The notes below the pieces were generated by a model. It was given only the letters and a program-made list of their open reading frames with translations, ran no database searches and was not told the DNA's origin. From positions 8,088-72,087 of the forward strand of contig JAUCBJ010008861.1 in the NCBI GenBank assembly GCA_032718475.1: 64,000 bases of DNA. The letters run 5' to 3'. The stretch comes from Nemertoderma westbladi. Taxonomy: Eukaryota; Animalia; Xenacoelomorpha. The translations under genes and the position numbers were made by a program. Of the stretch, positions 3,554-63,931 are shown one piece after another. Numbering within the stretch: the stretch's first letter is position 1; each line of letters begins with the position of its first letter.

Positions 3554-5434
3554 CTAGTTCGCTCCTCCCATCTTCGGGAACCATCTTAGTTCTTTCCCTC
3601 TATCATTGTCCTGTCTGGGCCGCTTCCTTCCCTCTGGCTTGTACTCTCTGAGACTCCTCATTCTCGCCGTTACTGCCTTGCTTATTCCTGTGGTCGATTC
3701 TTTGGGCGCTGGTGTTATTAACTCCCGGTAACGCTTTGCAGGTGGCCCTTCCGAATGACCCTTCTGCTTCCCCCTGGTAGCGTCCCACAAGATCATTTTC
3801 ATGGTTTGCGGCACGTGTTCGCCAGAAAATCCCTGAACTCGCCTCTGTTTTCTGGTGTCCACCTGTCCAAGTACCTCTGTGTATTGATGACTCCTCCATA
3901 TGACGCCGATATCGCTACCTCTTGGTATGTAAATGGCAGTCTCCTCTTGATAATCTCCAGATGGGCTTCCTGATTGATGTTGAAGAAACCCTACCGGAAC
4001 TCCTGGGACTTCATCCTCTGTTGCCTCATAACGCCGACGTCGGCCCAATCCTCGAAGATCTTAAACTTCTCCTCGTCGTCCATCCAGTTGCACCGGCACC
4101 CATAGTGCCCTCGGAAGTTACACTTTGAGCAGCGGTTGTGCAGCCTCAGACATGCCCCCATTCTATGGCTCGACTCGCGGCAGTAGAGGCAACTCGTCCC
4201 CTTCTGAAATCGATACAAACAGCTCTTTTCCTGTTGAGTCAGCCTCCCGCAGTAATCACAGCCGTGTATCAACGCATCCCGCACCAAGTCGTCTTTTGCC
4301 CCGAGTGGTCTCCTCAGTCTGTGGAGCCGTTGGTAAGCAAACTTCTGGACATTAACGTCTCTATCCATATCCACGTCCTCCTCCCGCCTTGGCATCGTCT
4401 CCCCAAACACTACCTGTGGTGCCGTTCCTGGTTGCCCGCCCAACCTGATGATGCTCCCCGCCAAATCCATCGTGCTCCTCGTGCACCCAGGTCCGCTTGC
4501 CGGGTTTATCCCAGAAGGCCCTCGCCCCACTGGACGTCACCACTCTCCCACCCACCCAGTCTGTATCTGAGTGGCTGATCCTCTCGATGGGCGGCATCTC
4601 CCCGAACTCGTCATCATCTTCCTCCCTCGCTGGGAGTGGATCCAGACCAAGTATCCCAGTAGACCCACTGTGTCCTTTTCCGCCTTGGCTTCTACCCGTA
4701 ACTTTCCATCCTTCCTGTTCCCTCGGTCTTTTTCTTGCGGAATCGCCCTCAGAGCCCGCAGGCATGGGCATCACTTGCAATCCTGATGTCGACTGTTTCG
4801 GCGATTCTTCTGTCCATCCCTACTCCTCCCCCAGATACTCGCACGAGCTCCCTGATCCCCACCTCAGCTCGTCCAAGTTCTGGACCTCGAACCCGTAATA
4901 CTCCCCCCTTATCTCTACCTCTCTCTCATCCGCTTCTCTCCTTTCTTGCCTGGCGACTTCTTCCAGTCGCTTCTCTTCAAGTCTATATGCTTCCAGCTTC
5001 TCCCATCTCTTGTATGGTGTATCCTCCTCCCTGTCTACTAGGTGCTGGCTGTTGTAGTACACCAACTCCTTCAGCCCCAGGTGGACACCTTCGGAGGCCA
5101 CCTTAAAGGCTCTTCCGTAGTTTGGAGGTGATCCTGATAGCAGAAACGCCATCGGCTCTCTTCCGATAACCACGGCCATGAATAGGTTTAGTAAACCTAT
5201 CATTACCCAATCCTCCTGTAGGATATATCTCTTCTGATATATCTTTAATGCTCCTCTTCGGAACTGATGCACCTCCTGTTTCCCTGGCCTCGCTCCCCAC
5301 TTCAGCGAGTTCACCAGCTCCGCTCCGTACTCCTCCCGGAACTTGCCCCAGTCCATCGGCTTGTGGCAGACAAGGCCCATGAGCTGGCCCATCCCCACTG
5401 CTCCACAATGTCCTGTGTTCTCTACCACTCCCAA
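3554..5434 (-). pseudogene. Accessory (env-position) zinc-knuckle gene of family A, interrupted by stops and frameshifts
   Basis: ORFs 4820-5434 and 3991-4530; CLYCRESSHRMGAC and CSKCNFRGHYGCRC knuckles; homologous to 51746-53447. Confidence 0.7.
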
Positions 5435-11900: not shown

Positions 11901-11926
11901 GCAGTCACAGTTTATTGGTAGGTGGC

Positions 11927-11936
11927 AGTTAATGAC
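11927..11936 (-). promoter_or_regulatory. Non-tRNA PBS of family A (GTCATTAACT), complementary to LTR segment 12136-12145
   Basis: Directly abuts the LTR end ...TCACA; no TGG; perfect reverse complement lies inside the LTR. Confidence 0.7.
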
Positions 11937-12296: not shown

Positions 12297-12709
12297 TCTA
12301 GCTCCCTTTCGCTTACCTGACTTACACTCGGTGGACTTGAGGGATTATTACGGGAACTCCGGGTGCTCCTCACAGCCACTGGGACCACGGCACTGACCAG
12401 ACTCACGGATCTGGAAACCGGGCTTTGGGCTCTTGCTCCAGCTAAACTGCCCTCCTTACTACTCACCTTGGGTTGGGCTGCTGTGCAATCCTTCTTTACA
12501 GTAGTAGTAGGGGACCCTATTAATATTACCTCACCTTGATCTTCTTCACTGGTCATTGTCTCATCCTCCTGTTCACTTACGTCAGCGTCACTCGCTGCAT
12601 CGTCATAGTCGGCATGGTCGTCAACAGTTATGTTGACACTGTCATCATTCGGTGATCCAGACGCCGTTTCATAGCTGTCCTCTAGTGCCTCCTTCTCTGA
12701 GACTCTCAT
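12297..12709 (-). pseudogene. Acidic, Ser-rich ORF N-terminus, probably the start of another gag cut by the family A LTR
   Basis: ATG after an AT-rich leader; composition resembles the gag N-termini at 28913 and 61165. Confidence 0.4.
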
Positions 12710-12940
12710 TGTTAAGTATATATTTTTGCCTTCCGGCTGAAATCTCGCAAAAATTCGAGATATAGTAATTTAATCGAATATTCGAATACATTTTTTGTCA
12801 AATAATTTGTTTTGTCTCAAATGTCAAATACGAAATTGGTTAATTCACAATAAAATAATATGAATTTAATTGTATAGTTACAGCAAAAACCAGTATAATA
12901 TTTAAACAAAATTGTAGCTCTATAGCTATTATACAGCATT

Positions 12941-17330: not shown

Positions 17331-17339
17331 AGCATTTAA

Positions 17340-25940: not shown

Positions 25941-25949
25941 GCATAAATC

Positions 25950-39134: not shown

Positions 39135-39815
39135 AATGTTACCAATTAAGGGAAAGGTGCAGGTTACAAGGACGCTCTTTCTAACCAAAACAATAAACGA
39201 TGTTGTTACCAATTGAGTGAAAGGAGCAGGTTACAGAGGCGGGCTTTTCTAACCAAAACAATAAATGATATTGTTACCAATTGAGGGAGAAGAGCAGGTT
39301 ACAGTGGCGGGCTTTTCTAACCAAGACAATAAAACGATATTATTACCAATCGAGGAAAGGAGCAGGTTACAGGTACGCTCTTTCGAACCAAAACAATAAA
39401 CGATGTTGTTACCAATTGAGGGAAAGGAGCAGGAACAGGGACGCTCTTTCTAACCAAAACAATAAACGATGTTGTTACCAACTGAGGGAAAGGAGCAAGT
39501 TACAGGGACGATCTTTCTAACCAAAACAATAAACTATGTTTTTACCAATTGAAGGAGAGGAGTAGTTTACAGAGGCGGCTTTTCTAAACAAAACAATAAA
39601 CGTTGTTTTTACCTACTAATTGAGAGAAAGGAGCAGGTCACAGCAGCGGGCATTTCTAACCAAAACAATAAACGTTGTGTTGTTATCTACCAATTTAAGG
39701 AAAGGAGTAGGTTATAGAGGTGGGCTTTTCTAAACAAAACAATAAAAGTTGTTTTTACCTACCAATTGAGGGAAAGGAGCAGGTTACAGCAACAGGCTTT
39801 TCTATCCAAACAATA
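39135..39815. repeat. ~59-bp minisatellite
   Basis: Unit ttgagggaaaggagcaggttacag...ttctaaccaaaacaataaacgatgttgttaccaa, about 11 copies. Confidence 0.9.
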
Positions 39816-39829
39816 TACATTGTTATTCA

Positions 39830-41955: not shown

Positions 41956-42484
41956 ATTTTTTTTCGCTGGGAACGGGAATCCTGGGAAACTTCACATGGG
42001 CGAAAAATACAAAGAAACTTAAAAAAAAAATATTGATATGAACCTATTTGTTTTAAAAGATTGTAGGGCCTTATCGCCCCTGCCCCTTATCGCCCCCTGG
42101 GAACTTATCGCTCCTCAAATGGTCCTTTATCGCCCCTTTGGGAAGATATCGCCCCTGGGTCTTTATCGCCCCCGGGTCTTTATCGCCCCTGGTAACTTAT
42201 CCCCACTGTGACAATATTAATTTTGAATGGGAATATATATTGTTATTGCTATTGTTTATTAGTGTAATAAAAGTCTGTATCCATATACTGTACAGTACAG
42301 TAGTTAAATTACGAGACACATGACATACATTGAATTGCCTAAGTAGGCCTACAAATGTTATAAATAAAAACAATATTTTATAAAATATGTTTAAAATAGA
42401 GTATTTTAAAATCATTAATAATTAAACTGCATGTTTACTGGCATAGGTAAAATTTGAATAATAATGTAGGCCTACAAAGCTCTA

Positions 42485-42890: not shown

Positions 42891-44167
42891 GCTTCCAGAC
42901 TTTCAACCTTTACTGCCGCGCAAACCCCACAGAGGAAGTTTTGGTTTCAGAGATCAAGCCCATCGGCAATTGGTGTTTCAATTTCGGTCCAGGAACTCTG
43001 ACAATGGGAGCATTCAATCTTAGCTGTGGTCCATTCCCGTGGTTTCGGCTTCCTTTTCTTCGTCCCAATGACAGATTCTTCTGAAGACGTTCGATTCGCT
43101 TTCAGTTTATTGTTGGCATTTGTGTTTTGAAGTTGTATTCGAGTGGACAGTTGCGCCGGTTTCGAGGTAACCATACCGACCTGTGATAAGCGTTGGTTTT
43201 GTTGAGTGCCGGTATTCATCTTCTCTCACCTCTTCAATGTCAGATGTTGCAAATACTGATAACACGAATAACGGTATATATTTCAATACTTGTCAATAGT
43301 AATATATATAATATAGTTAACTATTTTATATCTGTACTGTTGAGCAAACTCTACATAAATTCCAACCTGTGTATCGCCGGTAGTGCTGTTGCTGTGCAAG
43401 TGCTGAAGTGCTAGTTGCCACCGGTCAGCCGGTACCGGTAGTAGGGTGGTACCTACGGTGCGCACTACAACGGCAGTACAGCAATACGGTGTACCGTGCC
43501 AATGACTGAATGATTAGCGGTAACTATCTAAACTATTATATTATTATTACCGGTGCCGGTACTGGGCTAATTAGGCCTAAACTATAATGAATGCCCCGGC
43601 AAGGGTTGCCGGGGCCATGTTTAATTAGATTACATGATATGGCATGGTACCGGCTGACCAGTATTGCAGTATTGACTGATTGCAGGATTCTCGATTCAGG
43701 GATTGAGTACAGCCTGACAGTACCGGTACACATGGTACATGCAGATTGGCAGACAGCCCCAATGTATTGCAAAATTTGTCAGAAACCCAGCTGATTTATC
43801 CTACAGTAATAATAATTTAACGCATTTTAAATTTGGATAAATAAATTTATTATAACTGCAATAACAGTTACACTGATGCTGCACGAAGGCCCCACGCAAA
43901 TTCTACTTGGAAAATTTTCAAACTTTTGTCAAACAACATGTGTACCAAGTTTGGATTGATTTCATCAAGGATTGGCCGAGTTATTAACGTTTAAAATAAA
44001 ATACTGAAAAAAAACGCGACAGAACAACAGGTTGATTAATGCTACCCCTACGCTAAGGCTCACTCACTTCGTGGCTCGTCCCACAGTAGTGCAAAAAATA
44101 CGTTAAAATAAATCGAGTTGATTAAAATAGTAACATTTAGGCTCAGTAAGCTAGCGAATGCCTGTAG

Positions 44168-45156
44168 GGTGATCTTCCACATTAAACCATTCCACTCTGT
44201 TTCCCAAATGAATGCCTGTTCACCACTATGGGAGATCTTCCACATTAGACCCTTCCACTCTGTTTCCCAAAGGAATGCCTGTTCACCACCATGGGTGATC
44301 TTCCACAGTAAACCCTTCCTCTCTGTTTCCTAAAGGAATGCCTGTTCACCACCATGGGCAATCTTTAACAGTAAACCCTTCCACTCTGTTTCCCAAAGGA
44401 AAGCCTGTTAACCACCATGCGTGATCTTCTACATTATACCCTTCCACTGTGTTTCCTAAAGGAATGCCTGTTCACCACCATGGGTGATCTTCCACATTAA
44501 ACCATTCCACTCTGTTTCCTAAAGGAATGTCTGTTCACCACCATGGGTGATCTTCCACATTAAACCCTTCCACTCTGTTTCCCAAAGGAATGCCTGTTCA
44601 CCACCATGGGTGATCTTCCACATTAAACCATTCCACTCTGTTTCCTAAAGGAATGCCTGTTCACCACCATGGGTGATCTTCCACAGTAAACCCTTCCACT
44701 CTGTTTCCTAAAGGAATGCTTGTTCTCCACAGTTGTTGATCTTCCACAATAAACCCTTCCACCCTGTTTCCTAAAGGAATGCTTGTTCTCCAAAGTTGGT
44801 GATCTTCCACAATAAACCCTTCCACCCTGTTTCCTAAAGGAATGCTTGTTTTCCACAGTTGGTGATCTTCCACAATAAACCCTTCCACCCTGTTTCCTAA
44901 AGGAATGCTTGTTCTCCACAGTTGGTGATCTTCCACAATAAACCCTTTCACCCTGTTTCCTAAAGGAATGGCTCTTCTCCACATTTGGTGATCTTCCACA
45001 GAAACCCTTCCACCCTGTTTCCTAAAGGAATGGCTGTTCTCCACAGTTGGTGATCTTCCACAATAAACCCTTCCACCCTGTTTCCTAAAGGAATGGCTCT
45101 TCTCCACAGTTGGTGATCTTCCACAATAAACCCTTCCACCCTGTTTCCTAAAGGAA
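44168..45156. repeat. 61-bp minisatellite
   Basis: Unit ggtgatcttccacaataaacccttccaccctgtttcctaaaggaatg..., about 16 copies. Confidence 0.92.
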
Positions 45157-45275
45157 ACTTAGGTTTTGGATTAACCGGAACGACGTTTTACGTGGCGTAT
45201 TCATAATTACGGGATTAATAAAGGCAAGGAAGGGTCTTTCACCACGTGGATATATAAAAAATGAAGTTAATTATT

Positions 45276-48926: not shown

Positions 48927-50846
48927 TAAATTGGAGAGATACGCCTATTCCTACTATCGGAAGAGACGGTAACAATACCTGCAATATCCTACTGTAAAGC
49001 TTGTAAATCAAATCATAAATCCGACCTTCTCACCAAAACAGTAAACCCCAAGTAAGCGAATATATTGCAGTATCGATCTCTTTTAACCGGTGAGGCAGAA
49101 AACAGTCTACGAGCAGACAAACTTCGATAAAACAAAATCCCGCGCAGCGAATCCTAAAATCAGGCTGACTCACTGACGGACTAAGAGGCTCGTATACTTT
49201 GCCGCGGTGTGATTTATATGGTTGGGCAAAGAGACGCTAGCTAGGTACAGAGCAGATTTAGAGATGTCTAACTAGCGGGCAAAGTGCAGTAAGGACGAAA
49301 GTTAATTTTATATATTTTGAGGTGTAAATAATTTCTAACGCGCGTGTGTTAATTCTGAACAGTCAAAGCAGTTTTGCTCCTTCACATATATAATTACTGG
49401 GTACGGTGTGCATTTTACGAATATTCTAATTTTATAACTTGTAGGTCCAATACTCACGAATGATAAGGTTCCTTCCCCTCTTGCGTATCTCCAGGACTCA
49501 AATTCAGGCATAAGGTTAATACTACGCCCAGAATTCGGCAATTTTAGGTACCAGGTCCCTGATACTAAGAAGAGATGTGTTAGTTTACTACTGTAGGCGT
49601 ACGGGTACTAATAGCTATCCTGGTTCCTATCTAGAATTTTAGTCACCCAGGTAGTCCGGGTAACTTCCTATTAGGGCGTTGGCGGGGACACGGTAGATGT
49701 TAGTATATCCCTGATAGCCTCAATTTATTTGCGCCTAGCGTAAACTGCCCTACCGCCTGAACGGTACAATCCCAATTCAGGTGAAAACACAGCAACCCCC
49801 TAGCCTACAAGTTCTGATGTAATAGACACGGTCGTACTGCAAATAGTCGCACACACACCTGTACTTAGCAAGAGTTAAGCGTACAGTTTGCTGCACCCTA
49901 ACCAATGTGTATGCCTTGTACCGGTGTGCCTACGTCCTATCTGCGTACTAGTATCTGCTCTCTCTCCCTCTCCCCCCCGTAGGAATATGAAGGTCTACTG
50001 CGGTTTTTCCTGAATCAAGACAGTACAGTCCCTATGATGTAATTTTGGGCTTACAGCGTGTCACTACGTCTACCTTTTGATCTTTTTGGTCTTACACTTA
50101 GGTAGCAAGGATCGAACGCTGTCTAACCTTTCAGGCGATGGGCGAATAACACTAGATGGTATTGCGGGTTGTCTCTCGTCTACATTCCCGTGATGTTCCC
50201 GTTCATTGCTGCGGCCCGATCTCTAGCCGGCCATCCTGTCCCTGAGTTTGTTCACCGTAGTGAAACCATATTAAAACAGATAGAAAGGCTGAGAGATGTG
50301 ACTAGTATTTCTGACTTTATTACAAAACATATAATAACTATTATACAATAAACAATGTAATCTGAAATAAGACAGAAAGTGAATGATGGAAATTGATGTG
50401 AAGTGAATAACTAATGAACAAATCGCACCTTTATATACTAAATTTGTGCCGCAATCAATCGAGAAAATTCTCGATTGTTCTATAGATTCTAACAAGGTTT
50501 TAAAGATAGCTATTGGTCCAGCTAATATATAACTTGCACGACATTGGTTACAATCAAATAACTACAGCCTTATTGGTACAGACAAATGCAATTAATTTGT
50601 AGCGGTTAATTTAAATGAGTTGAAATTCTACACAAAAAATAATTCGCACTTACTAGGATTCGAACTCGATACCTACTACACATATAATTTCCAACGCTCT
50701 ACCAACTGAGCTACTGAACCACTTGACCGATAGATGCATAATAGATAGAACCAATACTAATGAGAACTCAAAGCAATCTTTACAAAGTTAATTCGAATAA
50801 AATAAAATTTTGAAAATCCACGGCATTTAGGGAATATAATTCTATA
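48927..50846 (-). repeat. 3' LTR of family B
   Basis: No difference from 62012-63931 spotted by eye; identical small ORFs at the same offset; preceded on the minus strand by a short purine run GGAGCGG. Confidence 0.95.
50634..50720 (-). ncRNA. tRNA-derived Pol III-like cassette in the 3' LTR (A box, B box, T6)
   Basis: GGTTCAGTAGCTCAGTTGGTAGAGCG...GAGTTCGAATCCT...TTTTTT; D arm intact, acceptor and anticodon stems do not pair. Confidence 0.65.
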
Positions 50847-51745
50847 CCGCTCCATGAAAACAGGATATTATCGTGCATAAAATATACGGTTTTCACCAAT
50901 AATCAATCAAACTATAGAATACTTAGGGCGTACTTACATATTTACAATTAAGTTTCAAACAATACTTCCTTTCTACGTAATGATTCGATACAAAATAATT
51001 ACAAATTCAAACTTTACGTATTTAAGGCTTTACTAAGTAAGTACAATATAAATCTAAATTAAATTCACCAATATAAATCTATTGCATCTCAAATATTGCA
51101 TAAATTCAAACAATTACAAATAAATGAAAACAATAAGAAAGGCTCGCAAGTCTTCCATCTACTATTGCATCCCAAATATTGCATAAATTCAAGTAATTAC
51201 AAATACTTTCATACCTAAATGTAGATTGCATAAGTTTGGAATAATTACAAATATGAGTCTTTCTGAGCACAAATTTTTCTGTCTATAAAACTTTCTCTTT
51301 AGGTACAAATACTACTTATAAAATATAAATTGCATAATATTCGGAACAATACAAATTGCATAAGTTTGGAATAATATAAATTGTATAAGTTCGGAATAAT
51401 TACAAATATAAATATAAATTCTTACAAATATAAACTCTCTTTTTGGGTAGTCTTACTAAATATAGATATAAACTGCATAAGTTTAGAACAATATAAACCT
51501 TTGCATCTCAAATATGAAACATAAATCTTTCAAATATAAGTTCCTTCTAAACTTTCTAAATTTCATAAATTCGGAACAATACAAATTGCATAAGTTTGGA
51601 ATAAACACAAATATAAAATATAAGTTTTTACTAAATATGAGTCCCTTTCAGAATACAAACTTTCTAAATATAAAACATATAATTCAAATAAATCACAAAT
51701 CATAAGAAAGGCTCACGAGTCTTCCGTCCACCCTTGCCCTCCCTT

Positions 51746-52945
51746 TTATCGTTTAGTTGATCGAGCCCTGCCGCGTCCTCGAAAACTGCGCACAGGTGAC
51801 TTTGCTCGCGATATGGGACTTGTGGGGCGAGTCACTGGTTTACTTGGGACGTTGAGAGACGGTGCAACTATTTCCTCACAAATTCGTCTATTTGGCATCC
51901 CAAAACCTCGACCGATTCCTCGTGACCGATCAGTCGTCACTACAGTTGGTAGAACGTCTGGGAACTCGCGAAAGGCGGACGACGCAGACCCAAGAGTAGC
52001 TTGCGCCCCCTGTTGATCAGCTGGTGTATGTCCCGATCCTCCTACTGGTTCTCTTGGAAGTGATACCGTATCCCGAGTAACTCGAATAGTCGGCTCAACT
52101 CCCTTGCGTTCTTCTACATTAATAATTTTCTTCAATTGTTGGCCCACTTTCTGGACCCGTATGATCCTACCCTGCCCGTCCTCCCGAGGGTGACGTGCAG
52201 ACGGCGCAGCCGGAGTGGCTGGTATATTCGTCGCCTCTAGGACCTCTTCTTCCTCGAATACGCTCGCTCGTATACGTTTGTGGTAAAACGCAGCTCGGTA
52301 CGCCCATGCGACGGTTAACCAAGCTCCTTTATTCCGCTTTTCGGTTCGGAAACGATCAAATTCACCATACGTGATACGATTTACGACTTTCTGAAAATTC
52401 CACGTGTTTTTGTTATCTGGGTGAATCTGTAACAGATACTCGCGCACCACTCGGAATCCGCTGTCGTGGGGCAAAATATCGACAACCTCGATAAGTTCGT
52501 CATATTGGGGCATAGCGGAGATGTATCCTTCCGACATCATCGTCTGGGGATTTACCGCCCAAAATCCGAGATGCGCTCTCATCGGAAACCGTCTTCTTTG
52601 TGCTGATACATGTTCATCGGCTAAATCTTCCCACTCATCAAATAACTTCCTCACGAGTTTTACAGATTCGTGTTCATAAGGTATGTCCCTTAGTTGGCAT
52701 TCAGATGCTCGATGTCCCTTTATATTGCAATAAGTACATTGAGCCATAAATCTCCAGCAAGTATAAAAGGTATGAGACCCTTGATCCCCACACCATCCAC
52801 AGATTAGCTGAGTCGTAGTAATGTGCTTTCCACTGCACTTTGCCATATGATGTCCAGCGACGCCACATTTACTACACATCGTATTGGCAGGGTACCACAC
52901 TCGTTCGTATATAAGATCTCCAATCGGTCGAGCGCTTCCTCCCAT
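51746..52945 (-). CDS. Accessory triple CCHC zinc-knuckle protein (frame open upstream to ~53120)
   Basis: CSKCGVAGHHMAKC, CGWCGDQGSHTFYTC, CTYCNIKGHRASEC; basic C-terminal tail; 399 aa uninterrupted. Confidence 0.8.
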   Translation of the reverse strand: MGGSARPIGDLIYERVWYPANTMCSKCGVAGHHMAKCSGKHITTTQLICGWCGDQGSHTFYTCWRFMAQCTYCNIKGHRASECQLRDIPYEHESVKLVRKLFDEWEDLADEHVSAQRRRFPMRAHLGFWAVNPQTMMSEGYISAMPQYDELIEVVDILPHDSGFRVVREYLLQIHPDNKNTWNFQKVVNRITYGEFDRFRTEKRNKGAWLTVAWAYRAAFYHKRIRASVFEEEEVLEATNIPATPAAPSARHPREDGQGRIIRVQKVGQQLKKIINVEERKGVEPTIRVTRDTVSLPREPVGGSGHTPADQQGAQATLGSASSAFREFPDVLPTVVTTDRSRGIGRGFGMPNRRICEEIVAPSLNVPSKPVTRPTSPISRAKSPVRSFRGRGRARSTKR

Positions 52946-53072
52946 ACTATAATCGTAATCATCTGGGTCTATGGGTTGGTAGGTTTCTGAAGGTTGTATA
53001 CAAACTATAGCATCTGTTGCTTCAAGTTGTCGAATCTCCGTCTGAGATTTCTTCGGGAGGTTCCTTTCTATT

Positions 53073-53447
53073 TCAAGAAGTTCCTCTAAAGGATCGTCGG
53101 CAATCGTAGTAGTTACTTCGAATCATCACCAAGGTGACCGATAGGCGCACGCGTCTGCCGTGATTCATCCGTAATCTCCACGATACGTTCTCCTTCATAG
53201 GGTAACAATGTAAACATAGATGGTCTTTCGATAAGAGATCCCGCACAGCGAAGATACACGTCTCGAAATATACTAAATCCTGCTCGAGTAAAGGCATTGC
53301 TGTCTTTGCGAGCTTCGCTGTACTTTCTGATAATTCCTTTATACCAAATATAGTGTAGTCTTTTGCTCCAAATCGTTCGAATGAAGCTGCCGCCTCCTCT
53401 TGGATATCATATCCCCATCTCGGCTCTCCTTGTATCCCTTTCTCCAT
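53073..53447 (-). CDS. Accessory ORF N-terminal part, function unknown
   Basis: WGx10FxRx3KxY motif shared with ORF 4820-5434; overlaps the open upstream frame of the zinc-knuckle ORF. Confidence 0.6.
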   Translation of the reverse strand: MEKGIQGEPRWGYDIQEEAAASFERFGAKDYTIFGIKELSESTAKLAKTAMPLLEQDLVYFETCIFAVRDLLSKDHLCLHCYPMKENVSWRLRMNHGRRVRLSVTLVMIRSNYYDCRRSFRGTS

Positions 53448-54109
53448 AATTAGGGTGTAGTTACATAATCATTACTACTAGAGGGAATACAACAGAGTTT
53501 GTAGTTAGTTGTGAGGAGACGTGAGAGTTTCGTCTGCCTTTTGGGCTTCGACAACGCTCTAACCTCCTACCCATAGCCTAAGATCTAGGGTTTCTTTAAT
53601 GACACGCTGCTTCTTATCTAAAATTTTTTGCCGAAGTAAAAACGAATTTGGGCTAAACTGGCCGTGAGTCTAAAATACTCACTTTTTGATCCCAAACTAT
53701 CATCAGAAAATAAGCAGTCAAGAATTAGTAATAAATATAGGGGAGTCTATTTATTTGATGTAACTTATTGAAACAAGACCGTGTAAAATTTAATTAAAAT
53801 TTTAAGAAAGGCTCGCAAGTCTTCCTCTCTTGTTTCTCTAATTTTAAGTTCCACCCGACTGTACCCTGAAATCTATTCACTGGAGAAATTTTTAAAAATT
53901 TTTCAAATCCAAATGGATTGTCTAAAATTTCGAAAATGTCTCAATATTGTGAGTTCCAAGTAGAATTCCATTTCTTATACCTACAAATCCCGCTCCTATG
54001 TGACACATAAGGGTACTACCCTCAATGTTCACATATAAAGACAATGGAATTCTACCGCTGTCCTTACTACGGTGTACAGGTACGTGGAAATCTATTTGTA
54101 AACTCCTAA

Positions 54110-57100
54110 TTATTTACTAGTATTAGGTGGAGATTTGTAGTCTCCGGACTCGTTACGAGTCTCTTCAAGAAGTACGAGACGTTGAGTCGGTCTGTCTACT
54201 GTACGACCGTCAATTGTTCGTACCGTCACAGTTCTTGTCACTCCATCCATAGATGGATGTGTGGCTAAAATGACACCTGTTATCCAGAAGCGTCTTTTTA
54301 GATTCACTTCTGCCAACAGCACGTGATCTCCCGGCTTTAATGCGCGGGTGTTATTGTACCAGTTTGTTCTGGCAGAAATAGAGGGCAAATAATGGTTTTG
54401 CCATATTTCCCAGAATTTGTTAGCCAGTAGTTGCGTGATTTTCCACGCTTTTCTTCCGTAACTATCGCTTTCTAGTGGAATAGAAATAGGTGTCAAAGTT
54501 GTCGGTGCCTGCATTAGCAGGTGTGCCGGTGTTAAAGCAAACTGGGATTGTTTGTCATCGGGTACTAATACTATTGGTCTAGTATTTAGTATTGCCTCGA
54601 TTTCAACAAACAATGTTGTCAGTTGGTCGTCTGTTAATATGTGGTTTACTGGAATGACCTTTGCCATGGCTGTCTTTATAGATCTAATCAATCTCTCCCA
54701 GACTCCGCCTCTCCAAGGACTATCTGGAGGATTAAACTTCCAAACAATCTTGTGAGGTTGTAGTTCGTTCGAGATTTGATCATGATCTAATTTCTTAAAG
54801 GCTCTAGCAATCTCATTCCGAGCACCAACGAAGTTTGTCCCTTGGTCTGAGTACAAGCATTTTACTAGTCCGCGTCTAGCGATAAATCGCCGCAGTGCTA
54901 GTATAAACGCGTTGGTGGAAAGATCCATCACACGTTCAATGTGAACTGCCCTACTGGACATACATGTGAAAATCAGTCCCCAGCGTTTTACTAGTATACG
55001 TCCACGTTTCGTATGTATGGGACCAAAGCAATCAATTCCAGTCTCTGTAAAAGGTGGTCTGAATGCTTGAAGTCGTGCTTGTGGTAGTTCACTCATTTCT
55101 TGGGTACCTATTCTAGAATGTACCTTTTTACAAATAATACACGTACGTGTCACTGAACTCAATGCTTTACTGGGTCTAATTAATACAAATCTAGTACGTA
55201 AGTAGGAAAGACAGTGGTGTCTTCCAGCGTGTTTCAGATGTAAATGTGCGTCCAGTATCATTGCACGTTGTAGTTCGTGGTGTTGCGGTATTATTATTGG
55301 GTACCTAAAGTTTGTGTTAAAGTCAATGTTTTGAAGCCGAGATTTATGACAAATTAAGCCATTATAAATAATCGGACTCCAACTCAGTATCGGTGACGAC
55401 TTGATTGGTTGACCTTGATTTATAGATGTGAATTCGCGCGCGAAATATCGCAGTTGGTAATGGCGAATTAATTTAATCTCACACCTGTCAATCTCAGCCA
55501 ATGTAAGTCGACGTGTAAAGTCACGTTTGCCTTTAACGTATTGTACGAAACGTACAATCCACGCTAATTTTCGGCAAGCGTTCGACCAAGAGTCTGTTAA
55601 GTTTACAATTCGGTCGACGTAAGTATTTGTGACGTCATCAGGTAAGTCAATGGAGATTTTGGAAGGTTTTGAATTACTAGAAGGGCCCACGGGTCCGCCG
55701 GTAAGTATTCCCTTGTTGACTGTTGATCCGTCCGGGTCTACAAGTAATTTGTCCTTCTTCGTCTTCTTACCTTGATTGTCGGTACTTTGTAAGTCGATCG
55801 TTAATGGTGGTTTGAACTCTATGGGGTCAGCAGGTTTTGGTAAACTTAATTTTCTGCCGACATTAATCCCAGGTCTCACCGTAGGTTGTAGGTTCGGTAT
55901 GTCTCTTGAGCGCAAAGTAACACCTGTATTTACATTAGCGTAGGTACTACCCACATCTGTAATACATGAGGTTTCACCGTGCTTATGGTTGCTCAAGTGT
56001 GTCAAAATTGGTAGTTTGTCAATACAAGGCCGCTCCAATAGGGAAACTGCGGCTTTATTGTTAGTCAATACATTACTAGTGTCTAGTCGACTGTCTAGTA
56101 GTGTGTCTGGCGATACGTCTGGTAACGTATCTGGTTGTTTGTCAATAGAAGGCCGCTCCAATAGGGAAACTGCGGCTTTATTGTTAGTCAATACATTACT
56201 AGTGTCTAGTCGACTGTCTAGTAGTGTGTCTGGCGATACGTCTGGTAACGTATCTGGTTGTTTGTCAATAGAAGGCCGCTCCAATAGGGAAACTGCGGCT
56301 TTACTGTTTGTCAGTGCGTTACTAACGTCTGGTGGAACATTTTGTGATATGTCTGGCAAAATGTCTGGTTGACTGTCTAGTAACGTGTCTGGTTGACCGT
56401 CTGGCGATATGTCTGGTCGACCGTCTGGCGATATGTCTGGTGTAGAAAGGCTCGCAAGTCTTCCTCTCTTGACCTTTGAAGTTATATCTTTCCATTTCGC
56501 CTTCGGTTTCTTCTTGAGTTTAGTTGCCGTCGTCCTTTTCTTTGTATCGACGGGCATTGTTGAGGTTATTGGGGTAGGTAGACTCGCAAGCCTATCATCT
56601 GTCGTCGATGGAATCTCTAGCTGACTCGTCTTCCCCCCTAGTTCTAAACTCACCTTGTGGGTTAGCTGCTCCTTGTGACTTATCATACTAGTTACACGTC
56701 TGTCATGTTTTGTCGACTGTAGTGTAGTATGGTTCACGTCGTGTGAAAAGGAATGGATTGAATTTGTAGTTAATAAACTACATGTACTCTGTACATCGTC
56801 TTCCTCGTCACTTACGTCTAGTGTGCGCACAGGCGCTCGAGTATACCACCCTATCGGCGTTCTGCAGGCGTATGCGTTTCCTGCTACAACTGCCGATGGT
56901 CTGGTTTCCCACACCTGATGTAGGTTGAATTGGTCCGTCCCGATCAGCATTGCTACCGATCTATAATTGGCAGGACATTCGGGTACACCAAGGTGTCTGA
57001 AATACTTACGGTCCTCTAGAGATTGTGCCGGCACTGGACCTAGTAGGTTACTAAAGTCCTTCGTGGCCGCAAAGGTTAGATCTCTAAAGGGCAACAAAGA

Positions 57101-60100
57101 CCTCTCCCTCTCGCTGTGTTGCGATCTTGGAAGAAGAGAGTCTAAGTCCAACTTAACTCGTGTCACTGGTATTGCACGCTGTCCGTGCATACTACTTACT
57201 GTATAACTGACGTGCTTACCTTGTCTAAGATCTGTTACGACGTCAGCGATCTTTTCATCCACGTAACTGTGAGATGAGGCTGAATCTAGAATCGCGTAGA
57301 TCCTCTTACTCCCTTTTGTGCCAGTAACTTTAATCGGGATTACACTGAATCCCTTCAGTTGGTCAGTGGTCAGGAGCGCGATTGACGGTTGTTCGTCTCC
57401 ATTTGAATATTCGTCGTCTTCTGATTCTTCGTCCGACGATCCGGATTGTTCTGAAAAGCAATCCTCTATATGGGTCACGAAAGTCGGAGTCGTTTTCGAT
57501 TCCCGTTTTCGGTAAGCCGCATCACATCTCGCTGCTGCTTCCGGGTGTTCCCTGGCGAAGCGTTTCGTCGGCGTGTGGCTGTCTGTGTGGAGCAGACCGT
57601 CGTGGTTGCGTCCACAGGATGGACAAGTGTCAGTATTTGGGCAATCCTTGCGCACGTGTCCGTGTCGCGTACACCGCCAACAAGAGTCCAGTGGCCGTAT
57701 CTGCAGCCGTCGTTCTTCTGAGTTCAACTCGCGAAATTGTCGACAACCTCGTAACTTGTGACCAATATACCGCTTACCCAAATGTTCGCAGTATTGGCAT
57801 CCGTTGAAGTCGGCGCTGAGTTGCTGTCTCGTCTGTTTCGTTCCAATGGGCGCAGATACTCTATTACCGTCTGAGAATTGTCGTGATTCCGTCGGTGTGG
57901 CGTAAGTGGCCGTCTTTGTGGATGTTGTCTGGGGTTTTTGTCGGTTAGAGGATGGCAGTGTGATCCCTTCTGCCACGATGTGCTGGTCGGTATAGTTAGA
58001 TCGAGTCTCTACTACCGCCTCCCTGGATATTAAAAGGTACACATCTTCTAATTTTAGGAATCCTCCTCGCTCCTCTCGCTGATATTCGACCTTCCTCCAC
58101 TCCCGACGAAGTCGATGGTGGAGTCGTCCTATTATCTTTAATAGGACTGTAGGCGTATTCCCGTAATCAAGTTGTCCAATTGATCTTAAGGTAGTGATAG
58201 CGTTCTTAATCTCGTCAGCCAGTTTTAGTAAGTCGACGGGTTTAGTGATAGCCCCTCCCTTACAGAGTTCTTCTATTACTGACCTGGCCATACTCACTGT
58301 ACCTCCGTATATCGAAGTCAAACGATCGTACGCTAGTTCGAAAGCGTCCGGTACACCAACGAAAGTCTCCGCCAAACGTTTAGGTTCTCCTGACAACGTT
58401 TGGAGCAAGTAATTGAACTTCTCTCGTGACGTAAAGGCGCACACGGCGATCTGGGATTCAATATAGTCTACGAAGGTATGCCAGTGTTTTGAGCTACCGG
58501 AGAACTTCGGTGGTTGTTGTACCGGCAATCCCTGTCTGGCTGCGAATTTCGCTATCTCCTCGGCAACGTTCAGAGTTTCGCGTCCTTGGTTGGTAACCTG
58601 GTTGATGTTCTCCCTTCTTGGCGCTTTTCCCTGATACGATGTGGGGTTTGAAGGTACCGGTCTTTGTGGTCCCTTCGGGTGTCTATTGTGTTCGAATTCG
58701 GAATTTCTCGAACTGTCGGTGTAACCTTCCTCCAGACGTTCCTCGATCTGAGCCAACTTGTTGACAACTGGTCGCAGAATGTCGGCGAACTGTTGTGTAC
58801 TAATTGCGTCCGTTGGTTGTAACGCCTTCTGTGTTGGTGTATTCTGTGGAGGATTATCTGCAAAAGAGTTGTCTGAACGCTCGCGTTTATATTCATCGGC
58901 CGCCCCCGTTCTAAATACCTCGCGTTTCGGGTAATCCGATTCGCTCGAAGTACTACTATCATCTGGATATGGTGGTCGACGTGCTCGCGTCCGTTGCGTC
59001 GTACTAATTCTAACGGTTCGTTTCGGAACATCGTCTCGCTTTCGTTGTTCGGTAGGCTCACAAGTCTTCCTCGAAGTCGTAGATTGCGATGTAAACTGGT
59101 TGAACGGTCGCGTCTCTGTTCTCCGTTGTTCGGTAGGCTCACAAGTCTTCCTCGAAGTCGTAGATTGCGATGTAAATTGGTTGAACGGTCGCGTCTCTGT
59201 TCTCCGTTGTTCGGTAGGCTCACAAGTCTTCCTCGAAGTCGTAGATTGCGATGTAAATTGGTTGAATGGTCGCGTCTCCACTGTTCTCCGTTGTTCGGTA
59301 GGCTCACAAGTCTTCCTCGAAGTCGTAGATTGCGATGTAAATTGGTTGAACGGTGGGCGAATGACAGCATTTGAATCCAAAGGCCTTGTTGGTCGAAACG
59401 TCATTGGGTAATCGTAGTGCGTAACGGGTTTTGGCGTCAAAGGTGGACTCACCTGTTTAGTCGTCAGTAGCGCAGGTCCGGTCAATAAACTACTACGATC
59501 TGTAATCGGTGGGTTACTTACCTTGACTCTCGGAATAGGCGACGACGTTGCTCTTGGCGGTATAAACTCGTTCGGAATAACAAACCTGTGTTCCGTCGCA
59601 CCATGGATAGGAGAAATATCACTACTACCCGCAATCGAAACAGGTTCCTTAGTCGTAACCGGTGCAAACATATGAGTTACCTGTGGGAATCGTTGACACA
59701 CGTCTTTTACTAATTGCCGTTCCCGTCCGGGTGCTCCTACGCTTCCTTCCTTCTTCCGTTCCTGAATTTGGCGATGTCTTACCTCTAACTGGTCCAAATC
59801 ATGTCCGTCACGAGATCTCATCGATCGATCGCGGGCCTTTTGATCCAGATCTTCCTCAGCGTTCGCTAATTCTCTCGCCTTCTTCTCAAGTTCGAAATGA
59901 AGTTTAGCTGTCTTCTCTCGTTGTTCCGTTTGTCGTTGTTGCGCCTCAAATTCTGCTTGTCGTATGGCGGATTGAGCTTTTATTTGCCGTGTTTTCATTT
60001 CGGCCCGTGCTTCCGAAACTAACCTGTCTCGTTCTAATTCCGCCGCTGCCGCTGCCGCTTGTCGCTCTGACTCGGCCGCTGCCGCTGCCGCTTGTCGCTC

Positions 60101-61165
60101 TGACTCGGCCGCTGCCGCTGCCGCTTGTCGCTCTGACTCGGCCGCTGCCGCTGCCGCTTGTCGGGCAATGTCTACCTCTAACCTTTCTACTTCAGCTGCT
60201 TCTAATTCAGCTTGTTCCTGTAGATGAGAGATTCTTGCTATATTCGCAACGCGTAGCTTCTCTTCTTCTACTGCTGCCTGCATCACTAGAAGTTGAGCTT
60301 GTTCCTCCATTTCTCGTCGTTGTCGGTAGAATTCTTGCTGTTGTCGAGCAACTTCTGACGTAACCATACTTCCCTCGCAGATTTCGCTACGAATACTTAC
60401 CAGTGATTGATCCAATATTCCCGGTGCCGATTCGATTTGTGCGAGCGAAGTTTCCCTCGTAGCCTCCGGCACGGTTTCCCAATCTCCGACGTCCTCGCCG
60501 CACATGCGTAAGTGATCCGTCAGGTGTTTCAATTGTCCATCCAGTCGGTACAGTTCCTGTTCTTCCTCGGGCTGTAATAATTCGTCCGAAACTGACTCAC
60601 CTAACAACTGGTCCGCTTGTTCCTGTTGTATCTGTCTAATCGTCGACTTAAACTGAATCAGTTTCTCTCTAGTGATCATTAGTTTCTCGAGGATTCTAAG
60701 TTGAGTATCCATGTCCTGTCTCTGTCTAGCTAGATCTTGTAGGCCCACTAGATTATCTACGGACTTATATACTTTACTCTGTACTCTAACCTGGAGGGTG
60801 TAGAACTCGAATCGAGACATCGGAGCGGTCAACCCGTCTAATATGCGTTGGCCTTCTCCAATGCTCCTGGTTATATGCGCCATGTAACCTCCGACGCTTC
60901 TAACCACACTTTCTGTACTTCCTGCTGAACTTACCATTTCCGTTTCCCTGTATCTAGGTTGCGGAACAGTTAGAAAGTCCTCGGTCCTGCCGTCGCCTCG
61001 TACTACGGCATCCGGTACTCCCGTTGGATGTACTGGTGACGCACACGGTGTAGGTTCGGTAGGCTCGCGAGTCTTCCCCTGTTGTTCTTCCGCTGCTGAC
61101 TTATCCGCGTCACATGAGTCATAGTCGGTTTGTGTGTTCTTCGTATAGTCTTGTTTGTCACTCAT
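54110..61165 (-). CDS. BEL/Pao Gag-protease-integrase polyprotein (2351 aa) without RT/RNase H
   Basis: KFSGSSKHWHTF...YLLQTLSGEP (DUF1759-like), CWRCTRHGHVRKDC, protease AILDSASSHSY, integrase HHCC and D-D-E (GIDCFGP, SDQGTNF, WERLIR); no YxDD RT motif between PR and IN. Confidence 0.95.
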   Translation of the reverse strand: MSDKQDYTKNTQTDYDSCDADKSAAEEQQGKTREPTEPTPCASPVHPTGVPDAVVRGDGRTEDFLTVPQPRYRETEMVSSAGSTESVVRSVGGYMAHITRSIGEGQRILDGLTAPMSRFEFYTLQVRVQSKVYKSVDNLVGLQDLARQRQDMDTQLRILEKLMITREKLIQFKSTIRQIQQEQADQLLGESVSDELLQPEEEQELYRLDGQLKHLTDHLRMCGEDVGDWETVPEATRETSLAQIESAPGILDQSLVSIRSEICEGSMVTSEVARQQQEFYRQRREMEEQAQLLVMQAAVEEEKLRVANIARISHLQEQAELEAAEVERLEVDIARQAAAAAAESERQAAAAAAESERQAAAAAAESERQAAAAAAELERDRLVSEARAEMKTRQIKAQSAIRQAEFEAQQRQTEQREKTAKLHFELEKKARELANAEEDLDQKARDRSMRSRDGHDLDQLEVRHRQIQERKKEGSVGAPGRERQLVKDVCQRFPQVTHMFAPVTTKEPVSIAGSSDISPIHGATEHRFVIPNEFIPPRATSSPIPRVKVSNPPITDRSSLLTGPALLTTKQVSPPLTPKPVTHYDYPMTFRPTRPLDSNAVIRPPFNQFTSQSTTSRKTCEPTEQRRTVETRPFNQFTSQSTTSRKTCEPTEQRRTETRPFNQFTSQSTTSRKTCEPTEQRRTETRPFNQFTSQSTTSRKTCEPTEQRKRDDVPKRTVRISTTQRTRARRPPYPDDSSTSSESDYPKREVFRTGAADEYKRERSDNSFADNPPQNTPTQKALQPTDAISTQQFADILRPVVNKLAQIEERLEEGYTDSSRNSEFEHNRHPKGPQRPVPSNPTSYQGKAPRRENINQVTNQGRETLNVAEEIAKFAARQGLPVQQPPKFSGSSKHWHTFVDYIESQIAVCAFTSREKFNYLLQTLSGEPKRLAETFVGVPDAFELAYDRLTSIYGGTVSMARSVIEELCKGGAITKPVDLLKLADEIKNAITTLRSIGQLDYGNTPTVLLKIIGRLHHRLRREWRKVEYQREERGGFLKLEDVYLLISREAVVETRSNYTDQHIVAEGITLPSSNRQKPQTTSTKTATYATPTESRQFSDGNRVSAPIGTKQTRQQLSADFNGCQYCEHLGKRYIGHKLRGCRQFRELNSEERRLQIRPLDSCWRCTRHGHVRKDCPNTDTCPSCGRNHDGLLHTDSHTPTKRFAREHPEAAARCDAAYRKRESKTTPTFVTHIEDCFSEQSGSSDEESEDDEYSNGDEQPSIALLTTDQLKGFSVIPIKVTGTKGSKRIYAILDSASSHSYVDEKIADVVTDLRQGKHVSYTVSSMHGQRAIPVTRVKLDLDSLLPRSQHSERERSLLPFRDLTFAATKDFSNLLGPVPAQSLEDRKYFRHLGVPECPANYRSVAMLIGTDQFNLHQVWETRPSAVVAGNAYACRTPIGWYTRAPVRTLDVSDEEDDVQSTCSLLTTNSIHSFSHDVNHTTLQSTKHDRRVTSMISHKEQLTHKVSLELGGKTSQLEIPSTTDDRLASLPTPITSTMPVDTKKRTTATKLKKKPKAKWKDITSKVKRGRLASLSTPDISPDGRPDISPDGQPDTLLDSQPDILPDISQNVPPDVSNALTNSKAAVSLLERPSIDKQPDTLPDVSPDTLLDSRLDTSNVLTNNKAAVSLLERPSIDKQPDTLPDVSPDTLLDSRLDTSNVLTNNKAAVSLLERPCIDKLPILTHLSNHKHGETSCITDVGSTYANVNTGVTLRSRDIPNLQPTVRPGINVGRKLSLPKPADPIEFKPPLTIDLQSTDNQGKKTKKDKLLVDPDGSTVNKGILTGGPVGPSSNSKPSKISIDLPDDVTNTYVDRIVNLTDSWSNACRKLAWIVRFVQYVKGKRDFTRRLTLAEIDRCEIKLIRHYQLRYFAREFTSINQGQPIKSSPILSWSPIIYNGLICHKSRLQNIDFNTNFRYPIIIPQHHELQRAMILDAHLHLKHAGRHHCLSYLRTRFVLIRPSKALSSVTRTCIICKKVHSRIGTQEMSELPQARLQAFRPPFTETGIDCFGPIHTKRGRILVKRWGLIFTCMSSRAVHIERVMDLSTNAFILALRRFIARRGLVKCLYSDQGTNFVGARNEIARAFKKLDHDQISNELQPHKIVWKFNPPDSPWRGGVWERLIRSIKTAMAKVIPVNHILTDDQLTTLFVEIEAILNTRPIVLVPDDKQSQFALTPAHLLMQAPTTLTPISIPLESDSYGRKAWKITQLLANKFWEIWQNHYLPSISARTNWYNNTRALKPGDHVLLAEVNLKRRFWITGVILATHPSMDGVTRTVTVRTIDGRTVDRPTQRLVLLEETRNESGDYKSPPNTSK

Positions 61166-61999
61166 TTCGGTAGTTGTAAGTCAAGTAAAGTGAGTGTCAA
61201 AGTATCGAGTTTACCGTATTTATATAAAACGGTACTAATTACAGTCATATAAAATTAGCCTACCGGCCGATTTTATAGCAGATGGATAAAATTAGCCTAA
61301 AACGGCCAATTTTACAGCAAATAAATGTCACGGAATAAGTATATAATAAAATTAGCCTAGCGGCCAATTTTACAACAAATAAATCGGATAACGATATGCG
61401 TTATCAAAAGGTAAATTAAATACAATAATACGGACTAATTCAGCAATGAACAAAGAAATCATACGGAATGCATAAATACTTGAGACAGTGGAACCCACAA
61501 TAATTTTAACTAATACGGTAATGCCTAACTTATTTATGCAACTTTTCGAACTCACCCACTCCAATAATTCTCCAGAAAAACAGATTCCCAGATACAAACC
61601 GGACGTGAACCTTTCCGTTTTTAACGTTGCGGACGAAACGCGATTTTCCCAACCAAAGTTGTTGAGTTATCTATCTCCCAAACTTGCTAAACACGGTCTT
61701 GCTCCCGTTACAGTCTAGAAATGAGTTCTGAATCCTGAAAAAACAAAAGAGTTAGGTTTTACTTTACGAAAATTTTGTACCGGTACAATATGGTATTTAA
61801 ACCCTTTTAAAACACCGGTATTCAATTCCAAAGATATTTTACACGCGGTTCAAATCAAATTTTATTTCAAAAAATTAGCACTTAGCTAATCAAATACAAA
61901 TTTTTACCTCAAAATACAAAATTTTCAAATAACTTTAGTCCTACCGAACCGTAGTTCAGTAAAACATATTCCTACTAAATTAGGAAATATGTTAAATAA

Positions 62000-62011
62000 T
62001 CATATTCCTAC
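62000..62011 (-). promoter_or_regulatory. Non-tRNA PBS of family B (GTAGGAATATGA), complementary to LTR segment 63064-63075
   Basis: Abuts the 5' LTR end; no TGG; 12-nt perfect reverse complement within the LTR. Confidence 0.7.
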
Positions 62012-63931
62012 TAAATTGGAGAGATACGCCTATTCCTACTATCGGAAGAGACGGTAACAATACCTGCAATATCCTACTGTAAAGCTTGTAAATCAAATCA
62101 TAAATCCGACCTTCTCACCAAAACAGTAAACCCCAAGTAAGCGAATATATTGCAGTATCGATCTCTTTTAACCGGTGAGGCAGAAAACAGTCTACGAGCA
62201 GACAAACTTCGATAAAACAAAATCCCGCGCAGCGAATCCTAAAATCAGGCTGACTCACTGACGGACTAAGAGGCTCGTATACTTTGCCGCGGTGTGATTT
62301 ATATGGTTGGGCAAAGAGACGCTAGCTAGGTACAGAGCAGATTTAGAGATGTCTAACTAGCGGGCAAAGTGCAGTAAGGACGAAAGTTAATTTTATATAT
62401 TTTGAGGTGTAAATAATTTCTAACGCGCGTGTGTTAATTCTGAACAGTCAAAGCAGTTTTGCTCCTTCACATATATAATTACTGGGTACGGTGTGCATTT
62501 TACGAATATTCTAATTTTATAACTTGTAGGTCCAATACTCACGAATGATAAGGTTCCTTCCCCTCTTGCGTATCTCCAGGACTCAAATTCAGGCATAAGG
62601 TTAATACTACGCCCAGAATTCGGCAATTTTAGGTACCAGGTCCCTGATACTAAGAAGAGATGTGTTAGTTTACTACTGTAGGCGTACGGGTACTAATAGC
62701 TATCCTGGTTCCTATCTAGAATTTTAGTCACCCAGGTAGTCCGGGTAACTTCCTATTAGGGCGTTGGCGGGGACACGGTAGATGTTAGTATATCCCTGAT
62801 AGCCTCAATTTATTTGCGCCTAGCGTAAACTGCCCTACCGCCTGAACGGTACAATCCCAATTCAGGTGAAAACACAGCAACCCCCTAGCCTACAAGTTCT
62901 GATGTAATAGACACGGTCGTACTGCAAATAGTCGCACACACACCTGTACTTAGCAAGAGTTAAGCGTACAGTTTGCTGCACCCTAACCAATGTGTATGCC
63001 TTGTACCGGTGTGCCTACGTCCTATCTGCGTACTAGTATCTGCTCTCTCTCCCTCTCCCCCCCGTAGGAATATGAAGGTCTACTGCGGTTTTTCCTGAAT
63101 CAAGACAGTACAGTCCCTATGATGTAATTTTGGGCTTACAGCGTGTCACTACGTCTACCTTTTGATCTTTTTGGTCTTACACTTAGGTAGCAAGGATCGA
63201 ACGCTGTCTAACCTTTCAGGCGATGGGCGAATAACACTAGATGGTATTGCGGGTTGTCTCTCGTCTACATTCCCGTGATGTTCCCGTTCATTGCTGCGGC
63301 CCGATCTCTAGCCGGCCATCCTGTCCCTGAGTTTGTTCACCGTAGTGAAACCATATTAAAACAGATAGAAAGGCTGAGAGATGTGACTAGTATTTCTGAC
63401 TTTATTACAAAACATATAATAACTATTATACAATAAACAATGTAATCTGAAATAAGACAGAAAGTGAATGATGGAAATTGATGTGAAGTGAATAACTAAT
63501 GAACAAATCGCACCTTTATATACTAAATTTGTGCCGCAATCAATCGAGAAAATTCTCGATTGTTCTATAGATTCTAACAAGGTTTTAAAGATAGCTATTG
63601 GTCCAGCTAATATATAACTTGCACGACATTGGTTACAATCAAATAACTACAGCCTTATTGGTACAGACAAATGCAATTAATTTGTAGCGGTTAATTTAAA
63701 TGAGTTGAAATTCTACACAAAAAATAATTCGCACTTACTAGGATTCGAACTCGATACCTACTACACATATAATTTCCAACGCTCTACCAACTGAGCTACT
63801 GAACCACTTGACCGATAGATGCATAATAGATAGAACCAATACTAATGAGAACTCAAAGCAATCTTTACAAAGTTAATTCGAATAAAATAAAATTTTGAAA
63901 ATCCACGGCATTTAGGGAATATAATTCTATA
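62012..63931 (-). repeat. 5' LTR of family B
   Basis: Direct repeat of 48927-50846; sense termini TATAGA...AATTTA. Confidence 0.95.
63719..63805 (-). ncRNA. tRNA-derived Pol III-like cassette in the 5' LTR
   Basis: Identical to 50634-50720. Confidence 0.65.

Follow-up and report, generated by a model that had tools for sequence, protein, structure and literature searches.

In the Belpaoviridae, the only third gene recorded is env and replication is poorly understood, according to the ICTV profile (PMC8742986). A survey of BEL/Pao elements, in its accessible part, also names env alone as a third gene (PMC3118150). Extra ORFs downstream of pol are known more generally in LTR elements (accessible parts of PMC6431247, PMC7264820 and bioRxiv 10.1101/2025.03.14.642691). 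In the Gypsy/Ty3 element Cer1 of C. elegans, the env position is occupied by CERV, a tested, spliced, Cys-rich gene that is not an Env (accessible part of PMC10309623).

Here we analysed a 64,000-nucleotide stretch of Nemertoderma westbladi DNA (the window), on which an earlier note had reported a zinc-knuckle gene carried by two BEL/Pao families, A and B. This accessory gene is a real third-position gene of an LTR retrotransposon, selected in B and apparently undescribed: a zinc-knuckle third gene of BEL/Pao elements was not found in the accessible parts of the literature searched, mostly open-access and outside Repbase Reports, and the accessible parts of PMC12440569 and PMC3601003 contain nothing on such an accessory gene.

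Two BEL elements with a gene in the env position

The window is repeat-rich and eukaryotic. Element B spans 48927–63931 on the minus strand (~15 kb) and is flanked by a 5-bp target-site duplication. Its main parts are as follows.

48927..50846, minus strand: 3' LTR of element B, 1920 bp, termini TA..TA, same sequence as the 5' LTR
62012..63931, minus strand: 5' LTR of element B, 1920 bp, same sequence as the 3' LTR
54110..61165, minus strand: gag-pol of element B, 2351 aa, a single open frame, with the pol stop at 54110

The gag-pol frame comprises Gag, three BEL-type knuckles, a protease-like motif, a low-complexity linker and the integrase. It matches DUF1759 in Gag and Integrase_H2C2 and DUF5641 in the integrase, which is the last domain. 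A search with the integrase retrieved 1785 proteins among 5133 candidates, and the 120 listed are BEL/Pao-type polyproteins of 32–41% identity. Element B shares with the Belpaoviridae an LTR-flanked gag-pol with a target-site duplication, a BEL-type Gag and a terminal integrase; RT and RNase H, which also belong to the definition of that family, are absent from the Pol of this copy. In ten of ten homologues tested (of the 120 listed), about 620–850 aa between Gag/protease and integrase are unmatched in B, and the YVDD motif present in the four homologues checked is absent from it. Lacking RT, this copy cannot be placed in an RT-based clade. Element B is therefore a young derivative of a BEL element that has no RT or RNase H and whose ORF is still open.

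Several further features of B were observed. Its LTR ends (48927, 50846, 62012 and 63931) read TA..TA instead of TG..CA, and the target-site duplication is clean. At 55600–56800, a low-complexity linker and 123-nt tandem repeats replace RT and RNase H; the RT-less element nonetheless has identical LTRs and an integrase under purifying selection. By eye, its U3 (about 63735–63805, and the equivalent site in the 3' LTR) contains tRNA/SINE-like A-box and B-box motifs, at which ARAGORN predicts no tRNA. A decayed relative of B at 23019–25955, 69% identical in the protease region, keeps the pre-RT segment that is missing from B.

Element A (about 2182–12295) has also lost most of pol. It is older than B by LTR divergence, its LTRs being identical at 339 of 359 aligned columns, and the Gags of the two elements are ~21% identical. 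In both, the accessory gene lies after pol and before the 3' LTR, as the earlier note had it. It is a single ORF in neither element: three frames are used in B, and in A the reading frame meets two stops and changes at least twice.

53073..53447, minus strand: first frame of the accessory gene of B (ORF1, 124 aa), coding support over 53447–53330
53123..53406, minus strand: middle frame, open for 94 codons, coding support over 53182–53123
51746..53122, minus strand: knuckle frame, 458 aa from stop to stop, with a core rich in synonymous variants
53119..53123, minus strand: frame break in the window copy of B, near 53121, its length varying among copies
3554..5434, minus strand: decayed accessory gene of A, interrupted by stops (near 4821 and 3992) and by changes of frame (within 4536–4364 and near 3800)

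The knuckle frame encodes, in order, an acidic linker, three knuckles, a predicted helical region and a basic tail of ~160 aa that is rich in S, T, P and R and closes with an RG-rich basic stretch.

Other repeats surround these elements. An inverted, internally deleted copy of family A at 20375–22970 retains LTR, Gag start and integrase tail, and a third BEL Gag (289–2252 and about 12296–12770) was apparently split by the insertion of element A. A long, near-perfect inverted repeat with ~1.3-kb arms lies at 12940–17331 and is foldback- or DNA-transposon-like. Minisatellite arrays occupy 30568–34600 (33-nt units), 39718–42038 (8–36 nt) and 44041–45159 (63 nt), the first of them following a 331-aa ORF (28901–29893) and family A-like DNA.

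Zinc knuckles and homology between A and B

Two segments of the knuckle frame were compared between the families.

52697..52876, minus strand: three CCHC zinc knuckles of B, matched by Pfam zf-CCHC at E 0.0026, short of the gathering score
52544..52648, minus strand: post-knuckle FxxWxD..QR..GF segment, common to A

In B, the first knuckle is C-X2-C-X4-H-X4-C (aa 83–96 of the 458-aa frame), the second C-X2-C-X5-H-X4-C (aa 108–122) and the third again C-X2-C-X4-H-X4-C (aa 129–142). The tandem of three reported for both families is intact in B; the first knuckle of A is degenerate and lacks its His. The accessory proteins are related above chance: tblastn aligned them at E 3.7e-6 (26.5% identity over 132 aa), and their local alignment score of 104 was reached in none of 2000 shuffles (32.4 ± 5.0). 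The FxxWxD..QR..GF motif that follows the knuckles is significant by itself, its score being reached in 12 of 2000 shuffles. The WGx10FxRx3KxY motif listed with it in the earlier note is visible by eye, but we rejected it as evidence of homology: the alignment of the N-terminal ORFs does not exceed that of shuffles (27 against 29 ± 4.8, reached in 1324 of 2000). Marginal similarity was seen in the LEE segment, where 132 of 2000 shuffles reached the score, and in the tails, where 56 of 2000 did. At the DNA level, the accessory genes of A and B show no similarity (best blastn E 0.39), and a recent exchange can therefore be set aside.

The knuckles of the two accessory proteins scored 72 against each other, a value reached in 0 of 2000 shuffles, whereas each scored only 36 (179 of 2000) and 39 (88 of 2000) against the Gag knuckles of its own element. 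The accessory gene is thus not a simple duplicated Gag nucleocapsid. In both A and B the protein also has a basic C-terminal stretch. CCHC knuckles are established nucleic-acid-binding modules, here pointing to RNA; together with the basic tail they suggest that the accessory protein likely binds nucleic acid, probably the RNA of its own element.

Selection among copies of family B

Copies of B were compared as contigs, short and unphased, from four public sequencing runs (four studies, of nine runs listed), one of which may be the source of the window itself. A 3.7-kb stretch of the B region was represented by 4355, 1571, 292 and 18 contigs in the four runs, from less than 90% to more than 99% alike, and from these numbers and this spread of identity we conclude that family B is multi-copy. 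The variants listed are the best-supported 40 of 146 rows for the 3.7-kb stretch and the best-supported 40 of 46 rows for 52650–53500.

Of the best 40 of 146 rows, the accessory gene accounted for 22 variants, 15 of them synonymous, and the integrase end for 11, of which 9 were synonymous; the other 7 were non-coding. Among the best 40 of 46, 39 were classed and one lay upstream of the ATG. Over 52650–53119, 16 of the 20 listed variants were synonymous in the knuckle frame; the two other frames gave 2 and 5 of 20. With five further sites added, the core of the accessory gene had 21 synonymous variants among 25 listed (expected fraction 0.285, p 1e-8). The N/S ratio in the listed rows was about 0.08 for this core and about 0.10 for the integrase, which served as a control (9 of 11 synonymous). 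Upstream, ORF1 had 9 synonymous variants among 12 listed over 53447–53330 (expected 0.27, p 7e-4; other frames 3 and 2 of 12), and the middle frame had 5 among 7 listed over 53182–53123 (p 0.03; other frames 1 and 0 of 7). The basic tail was less constrained (4 of 8 listed variants synonymous). Four non-synonymous variants of the core were listed, at residues 2, 2, 8 and 60, and no knuckle Cys or His was changed among the listed variants. Residue 60 is the first Met of the knuckle frame; since it varies, this Met is not a fixed start. The purifying selection among copies that had been proposed as a check of the gene is clear in family B, as read from unphased contigs.

One run, labelled as a second organism, contained pieces 95–99% identical to element B (e.g. 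2 differences in 376 nt). These could come from a close relative, a mixed sample or a transfer.

Frame switch within the accessory gene

The break near 53121 is not fixed in family B. A length variant occurs there in all four runs, and among the best 40 of 46 rows it is the only one inside the coding region. Between ORF1 and the middle frame, the switch (53342–53183) appears to be family-wide, and we infer that it predates the synonymous variants flanking it: no length variant was found between 53123 and 53447 in the best 40 of 46 rows for 52650–53500. Diverged relatives of B cease aligning in the switch stretch, with loose ends at 53186–53308. We considered the lack of variants across 53183–53342 as a sign of extra constraint and rejected it, as gaps of 100–128 nt occur elsewhere in the same variant table.

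A knuckle-bearing product would require a frame switch between 53342 and 53183. Our first guess would be a −1 ribosomal frameshift; alternatively, the switch could come from a short intron, or the middle frame could have its own start.

53274..53280, minus strand: G-GAT-TTA heptamer, in phase, the sole slippery-like site of ORF1 and a weak candidate for a −1 frameshift site

The related G-GAU-UUU is termed a typical slippery motif in a published abstract. A slippery-like site also arose in ORF1 in 1177 of 5000 codon shuffles (24%), and no downstream stimulator structure was detected at the heptamer by pseudoknot-free folding (z-scores −0.36 to +2.2 against shuffles). For a short intron, 15 GT-AG pairs are compatible in phase, all of them weak at both ends. 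A start in the middle frame could be the ATG at 53217, whose context is weak (pyrimidine at −3).

The spacing between the WG motif and the LEE segment agrees between A and B (111 and 109.3 codons), and in A both lie in a single frame, which favours one ancestral accessory gene. The alternative is that there are two genes, an ORF1 of 110–125 aa and an independent knuckle protein of ~490 aa started in the middle frame, perhaps with different jobs (e.g. chromatin or DNA binding). The family-wide switch and the ATG at 53217 would suit this arrangement, as would the absence of significant A–B similarity in ORF1, but the shared spacing and the weak ATG context argue against it, and we hold it to be quite improbable.

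Predicted splice signals

53478..53509, minus strand: predicted 3' splice acceptor with a branch-like motif, pyrimidine tract and TAG, the accessory ATG following 31 nt downstream

By a crude ad hoc score, this acceptor-like site ranks second of 941 AG sites on the sense strand of B; the top two are 61735, in the leader, and 53478, directly before the accessory gene. Four full-consensus donors lie within gag-pol. Between the acceptor and the accessory ATG there are stops in all three frames, so the product would not be a Gag fusion. From these signals we predict that the accessory product of B comes from a spliced mRNA of the env type, on which translation has a start of its own. In A there is no such acceptor near the accessory ATG, the best one by the same crude score lying ~1 kb upstream, at 6488.

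Searches for Env features, homologues and folds

The claim that the gene is not an Env held: no Env family matched, and B has no hydrophobic segment. The companion claim, that a transmembrane segment is lacking, was checked with hydropathy windows, as was the signal peptide; it stands for B (best 19-residue Kyte-Doolittle mean at most 1.07) and fails for A, where the N-terminal ORF has a borderline window (mean 1.65). The two B frames tested contain no furin-type site and at most one N-glycosylation sequon each, and no homology to viral fusion proteins was found in family, protein or PDB sequence searches.

Homologues were similarly scarce. A word-indexed search confirmed 0 of 124 candidates of near length and 0 of 16 of shorter length; metagenome scans gave 87 and 135 pattern matches and a viral scan 2, none of which was confirmed. 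Of the 120 listed BEL polyproteins, none resembles the accessory protein, the best E being 0.29. Against 1.84 billion representatives, phmmer returned only three matches, all to generic Gag-type knuckles (E 1.8e-8 to 1.5e-4): two span the knuckles only and the third stops at residue 142, and one of the three also has the 6-residue gap that separates knuckles 2 and 3 in B. Family searches found no capsid, protease or RRM domain flanking the knuckles, and an NCBIfam VOC match was rejected as far below its cut-off. Among PDB sequences the best E was 0.36, the nearest, non-significant matches including retroviral nucleocapsid (E 0.36–0.42). In an atlas of language-model features, where scores below 0.9 are leads only, the best row was a fungal DUF8363 (0.89), one row had AIR2-like knuckles (0.79), and nothing was returned for the post-knuckle part. 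Single-sequence AlphaFold2 models reached pLDDT 36 and 42 and are unreliable; they are all-helical after the knuckles, and Foldseek on the second, low-confidence model (pLDDT 42) gave no match at E 0.001.

Possible functions of the accessory protein

HIV Rev licenses nuclear export of the unspliced genome. Our first choice is that the accessory gene encodes an export factor like Rev and CERV, a tentative reading that we consider somewhat likelier to be wrong than right. The protein would be translated from a subgenomic RNA spliced to the acceptor at 53478, its three knuckles would bind the element's own RNA, the basic C-terminal stretch seen in A and B could direct it to the nucleus, and it would let the unspliced genomic RNA leave. 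We rank export first because of the strong splice signals in B and the precedent of CERV; where an element's RNA is spliced, the unspliced form must also be exported. Selection, homology in two families without DNA similarity, the splice signals of B and the basic tails of both proteins are in its favour. Against it, CCHC knuckles suit every rival equally well, and A has no acceptor near its ATG. None of our results tells export apart from the two other functions that the earlier note had proposed, a chaperone for the self-primer and a silencing suppressor.

The primer-binding sites raise another possibility.

62000..62011, minus strand: PBS of B, adjoining the LTR, with an exact 12-nt complement in its own LTR at 63064–63075 (1 of 5000 shuffles)
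11927..11936, minus strand: PBS of A, with an exact 10-nt complement in its own 5' LTR at 12136–12145 (4 of 5000 shuffles)

These self-complementary sites are Tf1/Tj1-like, and short hairpins flank both. In B, however, the PBS-complementary segment (63075) is preceded by a TATA-like motif (63522) and an AATAAA (63406), so it may or may not be the RNA 5' end, where self-priming requires it (accessible part of PMC4600332). The accessory protein could then be a second nucleocapsid-like chaperone in the particles, annealing an LTR-derived self-primer to the PBS or aiding strand transfer. Complementarity of both PBSs to their own LTR, apparently in place of the 18-nt Belpaoviridae PBS complementary to tRNA-Arg or tRNA-Gly (PMC8742986), would fit such a role, as would retroviral nucleocapsid among the nearest, non-significant PDB sequences. 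However, Gag retains its own three knuckles, already available for annealing, and self-priming Tj1 is drawn with only Gag, PR, RT and IN in the accessible part of PMC4600332. The ~150 constrained residues after the knuckles would also exceed what a chaperone needs, and the co-occurrence of such a PBS with the accessory gene rests on two families only. We regard the chaperone role as unlikely, if worth keeping in mind.

Host cells possess zinc-knuckle adaptors of RNA decay, of the Air1/2 and ZCCHC7/8 type. An accessory protein that mimics these adaptors or binds small RNAs might shield the element's RNA from silencing. Family B, multi-copy and recently active by its identical LTRs, would have use for such a counter-defence, the AIR2-like atlas row points the same way from below the threshold, and fast divergence between A and B would fit an arms race. 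The selection within family B is purifying, though, rather than diversifying, and no host protein matched significantly, the atlas row being a lead only; on balance we are doubtful of this reading.

It could also be argued that the gene is cargo without a role in the element's cycle, captured as a fragment of a Gypsy or Copia Gag, a LINE ORF1 or a host ZCCHC gene. LTR elements do capture ORFs downstream of pol (accessible part of PMC6431247), the sole database matches are generic Gag-type knuckles, one with the same spacing of knuckles 2 and 3, and both copies of the gene in the window are interrupted. This is hard to reconcile with the excess of synonymous changes in the core and with retention in two families without DNA similarity, and the database matches end by residue 142, with no flanking capsid, protease or RRM domain. 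The gene could still have originated by capture; the claim that it has no role is largely refuted, and we give the cargo reading as a whole a slim chance. A highly diverged Env, for which there are only the position and the one borderline hydrophobic window in A, is barely credible given the cytosolic-type knuckles, the lack of an Env match and the absence from B of transmembrane segment, furin-type site and more than one sequon per frame tested, and for B it is effectively refuted.

The export reading can be extended, speculatively, to an undescribed BEL/Pao lineage in which self-priming replaces tRNA priming, a Rev-like triple zinc-knuckle regulator, its RNA-binding form rationed by a programmed frameshift, fills the env slot, and is needed so much that a still-amplifying RT-less derivative, borrowing RT in trans, keeps it under selection along with Gag, protease and integrase. 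We think it improbable that all of these parts hold together.

Comparison with known systems

A selected, non-Env zinc-knuckle gene in two deep BEL families offers a handle on the regulation of element RNA. An export factor would add one more Rev-like invention, independent of HIV Rev and CERV; a silencing suppressor would be among the few known from animal LTR elements. The presence of the gene in a young RT-less copy also bears on how non-autonomous elements and their helpers share work.

Element B resembles the Belpaoviridae in its DUF1759 Gag, its integrase with DUF5641 (32–41% identical to the listed polyproteins), its domain order and the position of its third gene. It differs in size, at 15 kb with 1.9-kb LTRs compared with 4.2–10 kb and 0.2–1.2 kb in the family profile (PMC8742986), and in its third gene, which is not Env-like, apparently in its self-complementary PBS, and in its TA..TA ends and the lack of RT and RNase H in this copy. 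The additional ORFs of plant LTR elements (PMC7264820) and the sORF2/FAST-like genes of insect Gypsy elements (bioRxiv 10.1101/2025.03.14.642691) are, in the accessible parts of these sources, mostly membrane- or Env-like, antisense or very small, and zinc is unmentioned in the two main texts.

The accessory knuckles share the C-X2-C-X4-H-X4-C pattern of retroviral and Gypsy nucleocapsids and, like them, probably bind single-stranded nucleic acid. Unlike nucleocapsid, they are encoded outside gag, do not stand at the end of a capsid protein, are followed by no protease and score below the Pfam gathering threshold. CERV belongs to another superfamily and, in the accessible part of its description (PMC10309623), features a C4 loop, an M domain that forms rings and a G-like domain, and has N-terminal exons in common with Gag. 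The C4 loop, the G-protein-like domain and the fusion to Gag exons are not seen here, so the likeness is one of analogy. The accessory gene of B has three CCHC knuckles, begins at an ATG of its own that is preceded by stops in every frame, and switches frame internally.
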